64,000 nucleotides of DNA from Candidatus Sericytochromatia bacterium (GTDB taxonomy: Bacteria > Cyanobacteriota > Sericytochromatia > S15B-MN24 > UBA4093). The position numbers and the translations under genes were made by a program. Location: positions 32,001-96,000 of the forward strand of contig JAKFBU010000041.1 in the NCBI GenBank assembly GCA_036676985.1, read 5' to 3'. The notes beneath the pieces are model-generated. The model saw only the letters and a program-made list of their open reading frames with translations. It was not told the DNA's origin and did not search any database. Of the stretch, positions 17,856 to 19,787 are shown piece after piece (within the stretch, counting starts at the first letter, position 1; every line of letters starts with the position of its first letter).

Positions 17856-19787
17856 ATGACGCGACGATTGGTGCTCCAGATCGCCCTGTCCCTGAGCCTG
17901 GTGGCGACGGCCGGCGCTCCGGTGGCCGCCGCTCTCGCTCCCCTGCCGCCCCTCCAGACGGCGCCGACCCGGCTGATGCTCGGCGAGTCGAACCCGTCTT
18001 TGGTGGAGCTGAGCTACGAGCGCCTGCTCGAGGAGAGCCTGCAGCAGAGCCTGGCCGCATACCTCGGCCCCGACAACTTCGTGGTGCAGGTTCGAGTGGC
18101 GATCGCCCAGGACTCTCAGTCCTCGCAGCCCGCCCCGGTGCAGCAGTTCCAGCCGCAGCCCATCCAGGCGCCCGTCGTCCAGCCTCAGCAGCCCGCCTTC
18201 GAGGAGCTCGCAGCGGAGCCGGACTTCGACTCCATTCCGGCCCTGCCGGGGCTCGGCATTCCCGCCGAGGAGCGGACCCGCCGTCCGGCTCGCCAGGCGC
18301 AGCCCGTGCAGCCGCCCCAGCCGCAGACGCCGACCTTCCAGCCCCAGCCTCAGGCACCCGTCGCCCAGCAAGCCGCCATGCCCCGGATCGAGCGGATCCG
18401 GGTCTCCCTGGTTCTGCCGAGCTCGCTCCAGAGCACCGACGAGGACTACGTCAAGAACCTGGTCTTCCAGCGCGCCGACCTCAACTTCGCCCGGGGCGAC
18501 ACCCTGGACATCACGCGCCGGGACTTCCCGCGCTCGGCGGGCATGCCTGCCGCGGCAGGCGGCCAGAGGCCGGCCGGCACGATGCCGGGCTGGCTGTGGG
18601 CGCTTGCCGGCGCTCTCGGCGCGAGCGTCCTCATCGGGGGCGCGCTCATGCTGCGCCGCCGCACCGAGCCCCAGCAGGCCTTGGCCCCGATGGCCCCCAT
18701 GCTGCCTCCTCAGTCCGAGAACATGCGGGCTGCCGAGGCGCTCCTCGCCAGCGTCAGCGCGAGCAAGACCGCCGAGCCGCCGCCCATGCGCCAGGACCTC
18801 CTCGTGATGCTCCTCGAGCGTCCGGAGATGGGTGAGCGCTACGTGCGGCGCCTCTTGAGCGAAGAAGGCGGACTCGAGAAGGCCACGACCTTCGCCCAGG
18901 CCATGGGCGTGGGGGTTGCCAAGCGCCTCTTCAACGGCCTGCACCCCAACGAGTGGAAGGCCATCGAGCTCGCCGCCCTCGACCAGAAGGACGTCAAGCG
19001 CGAGGATCAGCAGTCGGCCCTCGAAGAAGCCCTCTTCGCCATGCTGCGCGAGCAGGCCGAGCACCAGGGCAGAGACAAGGACGCTCCGTTCGCCTTCCTC
19101 TCGACCCTCGACGACTCCCAGATCCTCTTCATGCTCGAGGACGAGGGACCGCGCGTGCAGGCCCTGGTCCTCTCGCAGCTGTCTCCCGACCGGGCGGTTG
19201 GCCTCATGCGCCTCAAGACGCCCGCCGAGCAGGGTGCCATCGCGGCCGCCATGGGCGAGCTGCACCTGTTGCCCATGAGCTCGTTCATCGACCTGGCGCA
19301 CCACATGGCCGAGAAGGCCACCAAGGCTCCGAGCTTCGAGACGCCCGTCACCAACGGCCTGGGCCTGCTCGTCAACCTGCTCGACCACTCCGATCGGGCG
19401 ACCGAGCAGGGCATCCTCAGCGGCCTGTCGACCCAGAACCCGAGGCTCCTCGCCCAGGTGCGCGAGGCCTACCTCACCTTCGACGACCTGGCCAAGGTGC
19501 CGCGCGACGTCCTCAAGGACGCCCTGCGCGAGGTGGACAAGGAAACCCTCGCCGAGGCCCTGCGCGACGCGCCAGAGCCGGTGCGCGACGCCATCGTCGC
19601 CTCGCTCACCGACCGTGCCCGCCGCATCGTCGACGACGTCCTGTCGCAGCCGCCCATGGCCCGGCAGGAGGAGGCGAAGCTCGAGGCCATCCGCAAGGAC
19701 CTCGTGGGCCGCGTCCGCCAGCTGATGCAGGCCGGTCGGTTCGCCGTCAAGGAGCTCCAGATTCCCAAGCAGGAGGAGGTCAGGTGA
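17856..19787 (+). CDS. FliF(RBM3-like)-TM-FliG(M/C) fusion protein (single-chain rotor)
   Basis: Signal peptide; YERLLEESLQQSLAAYLGPDNFVVQVRV, RIERIRVSLVL and VKNLV...ARGDTLDI..DF resemble the FliF ring-building motif; TM helix; PFAFL...EGPRVQALVLSQL, NGLGLLVNLL, YLTFDDL and TDRARRIVDD resemble FliG. Confidence 0.8.
   Translation: MTRRLVLQIALSLSLVATAGAPVAAALAPLPPLQTAPTRLMLGESNPSLVELSYERLLEESLQQSLAAYLGPDNFVVQVRVAIAQDSQSSQPAPVQQFQPQPIQAPVVQPQQPAFEELAAEPDFDSIPALPGLGIPAEERTRRPARQAQPVQPPQPQTPTFQPQPQAPVAQQAAMPRIERIRVSLVLPSSLQSTDEDYVKNLVFQRADLNFARGDTLDITRRDFPRSAGMPAAAGGQRPAGTMPGWLWALAGALGASVLIGGALMLRRRTEPQQALAPMAPMLPPQSENMRAAEALLASVSASKTAEPPPMRQDLLVMLLERPEMGERYVRRLLSEEGGLEKATTFAQAMGVGVAKRLFNGLHPNEWKAIELAALDQKDVKREDQQSALEEALFAMLREQAEHQGRDKDAPFAFLSTLDDSQILFMLEDEGPRVQALVLSQLSPDRAVGLMRLKTPAEQGAIAAAMGELHLLPMSSFIDLAHHMAEKATKAPSFETPVTNGLGLLVNLLDHSDRATEQGILSGLSTQNPRLLAQVREAYLTFDDLAKVPRDVLKDALREVDKETLAEALRDAPEPVRDAIVASLTDRARRIVDDVLSQPPMARQEEAKLEAIRKDLVGRVRQLMQAGRFAVKELQIPKQEEVR

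Follow-up and report, generated by a model that had tools for sequence, protein, structure and literature searches.

A natural FliF-FliG fusion encoded with flagellar-type stator and envelope genes in Sericytochromatia and Gammaproteobacteria

A FliF-FliG fusion gene heads a stator-containing operon

We analyzed a 64,000-nucleotide stretch of a Candidatus Sericytochromatia genome (GenBank assembly GCA_036676985.1, contig JAKFBU010000041.1, positions 32,001 to 96,000; hereafter the window) and found in it a natural fusion gene that joins, end to end, the C-terminal third of the flagellar protein FliF and a whole FliG. In the encoded protein, P0001, the FliF portion consists of ring-building motif 3 (RBM3) and the second transmembrane (TM) helix, and probably includes the FliG-binding tail. 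The fusion is the first gene of an operon in which it is followed by genes for a periplasmic TPR protein, a FlgO-like outer-membrane barrel protein, MotA and MotB. We read this gene set as a flagellum-derived rotor-stator module with a proton-driven stator of its own that has no export gate, rod or C-ring, is coupled to the outer membrane and turns something other than a flagellum, a reading to which we assign a probability of about 0.6.

The fusion open reading frame (ORF) occupies 17856..19787 on the + strand, from an ATG at 17856 to a TGA at 19785-19787, and encodes 643 aa; alternative in-frame starts lie at 17835 (ATG) and 17826 (TTG). A preliminary description made from the sequence of the window had proposed a natural single-chain FliF-FliG fusion on the basis of short motifs. 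Every one of these motifs was found in P0001: LEESLQQ at residues 58-64, RIERIRVSLVL at 177-187 and RGDTLDI at 213-219 in the periplasmic part, and EDEGPR at 428-433, AYLTF at 538-542 and LTDRARRIVDDVL at 584-596 in the FliG part. The proposed fusion itself was borne out by Pfam, by alignments with the FliF of the same genome and by fold matches to FliG and FliF RBM3.

An AlphaFold2 (AF2) model of P0001 was built on a 122-sequence family alignment and reached a mean pLDDT of 79.4. Both the FliG and the FliF RBM3 folds were recovered in it. The model begins with a helix at 2-19 in an N-terminal hydrophobic segment (residues 1-25; 17856..17930, +), followed by a first RBM3 half (helix 47-70 and strand 76-84; 17994..18107, +), a Pro/Gln-rich insert (residues 85-176; 18108..18383, +) at pLDDT <50, and a second RBM3 half (strand 177-187, helix 193-207 and strand 216-221; 18384..18530, +). 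A TM helix equivalent to FliF TM2 follows (residues 245-267, modeled as helix 246-267; 18588..18656, +), then a poorly defined linker, two cytoplasmic helices directly before FliG_N (310-321 and 323-335; 18783..18860, +) and an all-helical FliG. Hydrophobic segments begin near residues 5 and 247, in agreement with the single TM helix that had been claimed between RBM3 and FliG. The N-terminal segment, common to most family members, may be the signal peptide that had been proposed or the counterpart of FliF TM1.

The periplasmic part corresponds to RBM3 of FliF

The preliminary description had placed a split RBM3-like domain in the periplasmic part, and comparison of the model with solved structures identified the fold of FliF RBM3 in that region. 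Using VIA-align, model residues 41-225 were superposed on FliF RBM3 (Salmonella 228-438, Vibrio 256-452) with Z 13.2-15.0 and an rmsd of 1.9-3.0 Å over 95-102 residues, at 19-20% identity. The next-best folds were OsmC, which is unrelated (Z 8.7), and EscJ (Z 8.1). These values come from a VIA-align rescoring of the Foldseek list, in which FliF chains ranked 14-35, after FliG. As in FliF RBM3, the alpha-beta-beta-alpha-beta ring-building motif is split by an insert in the P0001 model. The first half was modeled at pLDDT of approximately 96-97, and its alignment starts at residue 228 of Salmonella FliF and at residue 249 of the FliF encoded by the same genome. The second half (pLDDT 97-98) ends in an RGD...F-P motif and extended the FliF alignment up to residue 438.

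Sequence comparisons pointed to the same relationship. The Pfam profile YscJ_FliF_C matched P0001 66-224 over its whole length (profile positions 1-147, E 1.1e-3), but the 19.8 bits lay under the gathering cut-off of 23.8. BLASTP (E 4e-5) paired P0001 58-224 with residues 249-421 of the genome's own FliF; the alignment stays collinear across the insert and sets LPGL of P0001 against VPGV of FliF. When the family alignment was compared with the same FliF by hhalign (probability 87%, E 3.7e-6), the alignment ran from the second half of RBM3, against FliF 368-421, through TM2 to the last FliF residues, with the helices 310-335 reaching FliF 512-531. Because the alignment reaches the FliF C-terminus, these two helices are probably the FliG-binding tail, which would here act as an internal FliG_N-binding segment.

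The Pro/Gln-rich insert of 92 residues lies between the first and second RBM strands, at the beta-collar position of FliF, as had been proposed. Its length and sequence vary in the family, and it is of low confidence in the monomer model; the LPG motif is its sole conserved part. In P0001 the motif reads LPGLG (residues 130-134; 18243..18257, +), the family consensus being LPGLP, and it is invariant in alignment A1. Across 122 family rows, L130 was kept in 113, P131 in 118 and G132 in 117. The RGD motif of the second half was retained to a similar degree (R213 in 101/121 rows, G214 in 118/121 and D215 in 115/122).

The absence of RBM1 and RBM2, also part of the preliminary description, held as well. 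Only about 45 residues precede RBM3 in P0001, and PF01514 (YscJ_FliF, covering RBM1/RBM2) gave no match in the protein at E <= 1, while the same profile matched the genome's own FliF at 4.3e-65. With RBM1 and RBM2 missing, the protein offers no housing for a type III export gate.

The relation to ordinary flagellar genes was also visible at canonical loci. The family profile spanned five canonical fliF-fliG loci as one frame with a single TAG (profile positions 44/53-619/621), and tblastn at two of these, G001:C15 and G106:C28 (L078, L079), revealed fliF and fliG adjoining in the same frame with one stop between them. Given this arrangement and the collinearity with the genome's own FliF, P0001 is collinear with a fliF-fliG pair minus RBM1-RBM2 and the stop. 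At G001:C15 and G106:C28, loss of one stop codon would suffice to fuse the two genes.

The FliG part is complete, with an altered FliM contact and a modified torque helix

Three Pfam domains of FliG were identified behind the TM helix, each above its cut-off. They comprise an FliG_N-like domain at residues 339-407 (18870..19076, +; PF14842, E 2.5e-5, 25.2 bits, cut-off 25), FliG_M at 421-490 (19116..19325, +; PF14841, E 1.3e-6, 29 bits, cut-off 25) and FliG_C at 523-629 (19422..19742, +; PF01706, E 4.6e-18, 65.9 bits, cut-off 23.3). FliG_M and FliG_C had been claimed before; FliG_N is present too. MgtE_N was considered as a different identity for the C-terminal part and rejected, since it matched at E 4.2e-3 with 18 bits, below its cut-off of 25.9, compared with 4.6e-18 for FliG_C. 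Thermotoga maritima FliG matched P0001 at 1.4e-17 in the PDB, and Aquifex and Helicobacter FliG were also among the best solved relatives. In VIA-align comparisons, model residues 336-639 matched Salmonella FliG 3-331 with Z 16.3, and residues 541-630 matched a MotAB-bound FliG_C (8ucs_H) with Z 13.8 and an rmsd of 1.8 Å over 88 residues. The fliG equivalog model TIGR00207 scored 63 bits (E 3.1e-17) and did not reach its cut-off of 226.7, which marks P0001 as a relative of FliG rather than an ordinary FliG. Unlike the separate, soluble FliG of the flagellum, this FliG sits behind a TM helix and is encoded outside the flagellar cluster.

The EHPQ/EHPQR motif of FliG_M is the contact for FliM. 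The replacement of EHPQ by EGPR (residues 430-433) and of MFxF by YLTF (539-542), as read in the preliminary description, was confirmed in P0001. Over the 122 family rows, the EHPQ columns held Glu in 110, Pro in 43 and Gln in 7, and His was outside the six commonest residues at its position; the last Phe of MFxF (F542) was kept in 111. Direction switching by CheY and FliM has probably been lost, as judged from these substitutions.

The preliminary description had further stated that the torque charges are kept. For the torque helix (residues 584-596), with positions in E. coli FliG numbering, the HMMER alignment to T. maritima FliG placed R587 at R281, D594 at D288, V595 at D289 and D593 at R287. 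The counterparts of R281 and D288 are therefore present, but that of D289 is Val, and the acidic pair is shifted by one residue rather than identical. The R281 column was basic in 104/122 family rows. On these alignments the torque helix appears recognizably kept, though not identical.

The operon encodes dedicated flagellar-type stators and two envelope proteins

A strengthening of the rotor idea that the preliminary description did not contain is the presence of dedicated MotA and MotB genes in the same operon. The MotA/PomA-type stator A subunit (277 aa; 21620..22453, +) matched Pfam MotA_ExbB at 2e-19 and NCBIfam PomA at 4.3e-43 (147.4 bits, below the equivalog cut-off of 341). Its PDB matches were flagellar MotA (6ysf/8ucs, approximately 1e-30) and PomA (1.2e-28), and none of the ExbB/TolQ chains in the PDB matched at E <= 0.01. 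It has a large cytoplasmic loop with conserved Pro residues, in which an Arg and a Glu are kept in alignment with the PomA loop Arg and Glu (R88 and E96). MotA E102 was nearly invariant in alignment A8, with Ser in row L060. The MotB-type B subunit (257 aa; 22463..23236, +) has a plug, a TM Asp (in YAD) and an OmpA-like peptidoglycan-binding domain, with Pfam matches to MotB_plug (1.5e-15) and OmpA (1.8e-17) and NCBIfam matches to MotD/MotB/MotS. Although stator scores lay under the NCBIfam equivalog cut-offs, the architecture is flagellar-type, and by these matches we class the module MotA as flagellar-type.

A tree of 23 MotA rows, 13 of them module MotAs from both phyla in which the module was found (see below), grouped all 13 on one side of a branch (SH-aLRT 88); the MotAs from the flagellar clusters of the same genomes fell elsewhere. 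Together with the synteny, this indicates that the stator is a dedicated lineage that travels with the fusion. An unlinked MotA from f2, one of the two families that carry the fusion in the phylum of the window, joined the module MotAs at 98, on a long branch. This gene (G007:C39:8891-9640) matched the module MotA profile at 1.1e-58, better than the flagellar MotA did with that profile (4.4e-42), and it is a candidate stator for the f2 fusions. In the other family, f1, one locus (L034 13700-15155, G055:C25) carries a second, more diverged MotB/MotA-like pair right after the module's MotA-MotB, 40% and 31% identical to the window proteins.

Between the fusion and the stator genes lie two genes for envelope proteins. 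The first encodes a secreted TPR protein of 223 aa (19784..20455, +; TPR_2 9e-10), whose GTG start is preceded by the stretch GGAGGAGG and overlaps the fusion stop (GTGA). In this protein a Pro-rich linker connects a conserved N-terminal motif of approximately 35 residues to a TPR domain at the C-terminus; the motif and the TPR domain recur in 17 aligned homologues. The second encodes a FlgO-like outer-membrane protein of 380 aa (20466..21608, +) with a signal peptide, a TolB-N/LpoB-like domain, a long helix and an 8-stranded barrel. Its Pfam FlgO match is borderline (1.3e-4, 22.3 bits, cut-off 22.6). Its AF2 model (pLDDT 82.7) has 8 strands in residues 210-379, the C-terminal residue is aromatic, and Foldseek returned OprG, OmpW, Ail and OmpA for the barrel and TolB and LpoB for the alpha/beta domain. 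The further neighbors of the operon include a DUF4349 protein and an Omp85 protein.

The layout of the genes indicates that the fusion is co-transcribed with the TPR, barrel, MotA and MotB genes. Downstream of the TPR gene, gaps of 9-11 nt separate the genes through MotB. A terminator scan found no + strand terminator-like site between the operon genes; the two sites that were found are both on the minus strand near 23200. A promoter scan returned 0 sigma-70-like sites. None of the listed records containing the stretch is of RNA. One run labeled RNA-Seq was flagged as "probably DNA", with short contig pieces at 90-99% likeness, and provides no evidence on expression. A complex prediction for fusion residues 46-230 with TPR protein residues 25-223 scored 0.01 and 0.08 compared with a mark of 0.32; run without controls, it is read neither way.

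The module is conserved across at least two phyla

Profile matches (E <= 1e-20) were obtained in 62 of 301 genomes sampled from the phylum of the window, mostly through ordinary FliG of approximately 340 aa. Rows covering nearly the whole profile came from 16 genomes, including that of the window, in two families (f1 and f2) of one order. The fusion was present in 8/9 other genomes of f1 and in 7/8 genomes of f2, with a contig-end fragment in the eighth. The close homologues are labeled as Candidatus Sericytochromatia, and two carry the names of filamentous cyanobacterial genera. At eight loci from this phylum, the fusion, TPR and FlgO-like genes were adjacent in 8/8, followed by MotA-MotB in 5/5 of the f1 loci.

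Named genomes were scanned with an alignment of four distant members, which revealed 27 loci, 26 of them gammaproteobacterial and one with a Sericytochromatia label. The gammaproteobacterial hosts include Oleispira, Thalassolituus (T. maritimus DSM 24913 and T. pacificus), Bermanella, Oceanobacter and Gynuella. Of the 27 loci, 12 were inspected, and all 12 have the FlgO-like gene, a TPR gene (coding here for a lipoprotein), the fusion, MotA and MotB. The gene order of the gammaproteobacterial module differs from that in the window, and in T. maritimus the module is flanked by unrelated housekeeping genes. In sampled gammaproteobacterial genomes, 6/300 matched at E <= 1e-60; five new loci from this class had the TPR gene adjacent in all 5, MotAB in 4 and the FlgO-like gene in 2. 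For 25 loci from the two phyla, the totals were 25 with TPR, 22 with FlgO-like and 21 with MotAB genes.

The size of the family was estimated with a full HMMER scan of 1.84 billion representatives, which gave 3117 matches at E <= 1e-3, 651 at 1e-10 and 45 at 1e-30. Among the best 150 representatives, 116 are at least 500 aa long, and 86 of at least 500 aa carry the ordered LPG...RGD...TM signature. Database entries label members as "FliG C-terminal domain-containing protein". In a FastTree tree of FliG domains (143 rows, midpoint root, otherwise unrooted; 47/140 forks unsupported), the canonical FliGs, including the genome's own, fell into one 21-row set together with 6 long proteins of other architecture, while a 52-row group around P0001 held fusions only; no order of events is drawn from it. 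A look at the ESM Atlas returned look-alike clusters of 550-840 aa with FliG_C/FliG_M and partly YscJ_FliF_C, most commonly from Balneolota, Pseudomonadota, Bdellovibrionota, Bacteroidota, Elusimicrobiota and Thermodesulfobacteriota; these clusters, and a possible presence in non-flagellated phyla, serve as leads only.

The host encodes an ordinary flagellum and a second flagellar-like cluster

Contig C26 of the genome that carries the window encodes a complete flagellar cluster, FliF, FliG, MotA, FliM and FlhA among its products; flagellin genes lie elsewhere. The canonical FliG of this genome, 337 aa long, retains EHPQ and MFVF and shares 27% identity with P0001 across 222 residues. The module is independent of the flagellar clusters.

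A second flagellar-like cluster lies on contig C6 (L071, G000:C6:50000-69999). It comprises FliK-like, two FlgF/G-type rod, FlgA, FlgI, sigma factor, rod protein and FlhA genes, together with an ORF (L071:9091-11022) for a 643-aa FliF with YscJ_FliF and YscJ_FliF_C domains that is fused to FliG_M only and has no FliG_C. A 656-aa frame resembling this protein was found in G007, and none was found in three Oceanospirillales genomes. Each of those three genomes gave only two FliG_M matches, its canonical FliG and the fusion. Dependence of the module on the C6 cluster was rejected as a general explanation because these three genomes have the module without a FliF-FliG_M gene.

Relation to known rotors, fusions and stator-driven systems

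P0001 and its stators share with the canonical rotor (FliF and FliG with MotAB or PomAB) the RBM3 fold, TM2, the tail-like segment and FliG N/M/C, a flagellar-type stator with plug, TM Asp and OmpA-like domain, and charged residues on both sides of the presumed interface. They differ from it in that the rotor is one polypeptide, RBM1 and RBM2 are gone, the collar has given way to the Pro/Gln-rich insert, and EHPQ and the first MFxF residues are lost. Genes for FliM, FliN, a rod or a hook are absent from the module, which lies apart from the flagellar cluster and whose MotA belongs to a separate lineage.

Covalent joining of FliF and FliG has been described before. According to PMC6079021 and PMC11481574, engineered full-length FliF-FliG fusions of Salmonella and Vibrio assemble rings. 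Examples in the PDB are 8z4d/8z4g, and chain 8z4d_1 matched both halves of P0001. Engineered fusions keep RBM1-3 and the collar and act in a full flagellum, whereas P0001 occurs naturally without RBM1/2, and its operon contains no flagellar partners. A natural fusion as such is not unprecedented either: Bergeron 2016 (PMC4768692) describes a Chlamydiaceae FliF-FliG fusion of approximately 330 aa, with RBM2, one further RBM and a FliG_M-like region and with no FliG_C. Both cases join a shortened FliF to FliG sequence. They differ in that P0001 has RBM3 only, FliG N/M/C and stators, while no MotAB is noted with the Chlamydiaceae protein. The FliF-FliG_M protein of the C6 cluster resembles the Chlamydia-type fusion in kind, but it keeps RBM1-3. 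A search of open-access and bioRxiv papers found no description of an RBM3-FliG fusion with MotAB and envelope partners; one could exist elsewhere.

Stators related to those of the flagellum are used outside it, with ExbBD, TolQR and AglRS given as non-flagellar relatives in PMC12505986. Tol-Pal, ExbBD-TonB, AglRQS, GldLM and Zorya all share with the module the use of an ion-driven 5:2 stator to energize a non-flagellar assembly. They belong to a non-flagellar stator branch and have no FliG, whereas here a flagellar-type stator faces FliG_C. The TPR protein resembles CpoB in kind, and the TolB-N-like domain TolB. Elaborate flagellar motors possess periplasmic scaffolds, such as FlgO/FlgP/FlgT and MotX/MotY in Vibrio and PflA/PflB in Campylobacter. 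These resemble the module in placing a FlgO-like domain and a TPR protein beside a rotor-stator pair; here, in contrast, the FlgO match is borderline, the domain is fused to an 8-stranded barrel, and there is no rod for a disk.

A rotor-stator module and its alternatives

In the reading that we favor, the RBM3 domains would form a ring at the periplasmic surface of the inner membrane, much as in the S-ring (FliF rings have about 33-34 subunits), and this ring would carry a ring of FliG domains beneath the membrane. Peptidoglycan-anchored MotA5B2-type units, driven by ions, would push on the charged helix of FliG_C and turn the ring. The ring would be positioned against the outer membrane, or pass work to it, probably through the LPGLP loop together with the TPR and barrel proteins. 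That work might be envelope maintenance, the moving of a surface component, or something else. As the module has no gate housing, rod, hook, FliM or FliN, its output would not be a filament, and CheY/FliM switching is unlikely. A more specific proposal is that the five-gene cluster is a free-standing rotary machine, in which a FliG ring held by RBM3 is spun by MotAB and linked by the TPR protein to the barrel, without type III export, axle or switch. We consider this proposal possible but doubtful.

Several observations weigh against a rotating, outer-membrane-coupled module. A ring tethered to a static outer-membrane protein cannot turn continuously, which makes the coupling mechanically problematic. 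The beta-collar is replaced by a low-confidence Pro/Gln-rich stretch, so that ring formation by RBM3 alone is an assumption, and ring, rotation and partner binding are predictions for all family members. YscJ_FliF_C was detected at E <= 0.01 in only 7/32 family members (best 7.2e-8). The torque charges vary, with an acidic residue in 53/121 rows at the D288 equivalent and in 49/121 at the D289 equivalent, where P0001 has Val. MotAB was present within the fetched stretch in 0/3 f2 loci and absent from 1/5 other gammaproteobacterial loci. Finally, all examined hosts are flagellated and have a canonical FliG, so that a role linked to the flagellum is conceivable.

The likeliest of the alternatives, although we regard it as unlikely, is a force transducer driven by the proton-motive force in the manner of Tol-Pal or TonB, in which a few copies of the fusion would have their FliG_C pushed by MotA with no closed ring or continuous rotation. 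A conformational pull would then reach the TPR and barrel proteins by way of the TM helix and the flexible LPGLP loop. An outer-membrane tether suits pulling more than spinning, and a disordered insert takes the place of the collar by which FliF subunits are zipped to one another. The composition also parallels Tol-Pal, with a 5:2-type stator, a membrane-anchored transducer, a TPR protein and a TolB-N-like domain at the outer membrane. However, RBM domains build rings, and that of P0001 is close to the FliF S-ring subunit (Z up to 15); all three FliG domains, which chain subunits round the flagellar ring, are retained. Known Tol and Ton transducers, moreover, make contact with the B subunit, within the membrane or the periplasm, rather than with the cytoplasmic face of the A subunit.

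The presence of a canonical FliG in all examined hosts fits a different alternative, for which the odds are slightly longer again: that the fusion is a flagellar part, serving either as an alternative or accessory rotor subunit in an ordinary MS-ring or in the C6 cluster, and providing for extra stators or another torque regime. C6 encodes rod, P-ring, FlhA and a FliF-FliG_M protein without FliG_C, so that its system would need a torque domain from elsewhere, and TPR and FlgO-type proteins are known accessories of high-torque flagellar motors. Yet the module occurs in the three Oceanospirillales genomes without a FliF-FliG_M gene, lies among housekeeping genes outside flagellar clusters, has a MotA clade separate from the flagellar-cluster MotAs, and does not keep the FliM-contact motif in its fusion.

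Retention of the MotA-facing helix in FliG_C, and the f2 fusions without adjacent MotAB, which might act on stators encoded elsewhere, would also suit a membrane-anchored FliG decoy that does no work of its own and acts as a stator reservoir, brake or regulator of stator availability. We consider this improbable, because a dedicated, co-evolving MotAB is adjacent in 21/25 loci and a decoy has no need for a conserved RBM3, LPGLP, TPR protein or outer-membrane protein. Least probable of all, and already disfavored, is a decaying, functionless remnant of a duplicated flagellar gene pair: drift in the switch motif and some torque charges and the TIGR00207 score of 63 bits against 226.7 speak for it, but frames are intact in 16/301 genomes of the phylum sample and at the 27 loci from the scan of named genomes, the motifs hardly vary between phyla, gene order is conserved and includes overlaps of start and stop codons, and there are hundreds of diverged clusters.

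How the flagellar motor originated is a long-standing question, and part of it is whether torque generation by FliG and MotAB can work apart from type III export, whose gate sits within RBM1/2; PMC12199754 asks whether rotor parts serve other functions. The fusion family is a natural dissection of the motor, in which the ring-building and torque parts and the stator have been kept and the export housing, switch contact and axial genes dropped. The module is nevertheless conserved across at least two phyla, and hundreds of diverged protein clusters share the ordered signature. If the proposal of a free-standing rotary machine holds, it would represent a new class of MotAB-driven machine, and a FliF(RBM3)-FliG-MotAB torque unit could exist and be maintained by selection apart from the secretion system. 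The module would then be a living model of how rotation and export were joined, or of how rotation later split off for another use. Were the fusion instead an accessory of the ordinary flagellum, a new kind of rotor subunit would be added to motor diversity. The family occurs in cultured, non-pathogenic marine bacteria (T. maritimus DSM 24913 and T. pacificus), which opens the formation of rings, their rotation and their function to direct experiment. For structural and single-molecule studies of how stators couple to rotors, a small rotor made of one chain would also be convenient.

Other features of the window

Two genes are divergent from the fusion on the minus strand. One (15801-16208) encodes a 135-aa protein without a family and is present in 3/5 f1 loci. 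The other (16293-17594) encodes a 433-aa protein that resembles an outer-membrane barrel, with weak DUF5723 and PorV/PorQ matches. It was identified in 4/5 f1 loci, beside the module in three and beyond the 5' end of the fusion in L037. Neither gene was found in the f2 or gammaproteobacterial loci examined. Long frames at 14652-17615 (+, 987 aa) and 17739-19388 (-, 549 aa) overlap real genes in other frames or on the other strand and are shadow ORFs typical of a high-GC genome; the 987-aa frame had no Pfam match.

Window positions 2001-6000 have a GC content of 0.57-0.59 compared with 0.67-0.71 elsewhere in the window, and this region may be foreign DNA. A 1214-aa ORF at 2444-6088 had no Pfam match at E <= 1e-5. 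Directly after MotB, an Ion_trans_2 ion-channel gene occupies 23317-24492 (+); it was not found after the module in the related loci. A gene for a methyl-accepting chemotaxis protein is located 5 kb further along, at 28037-30400 (-).

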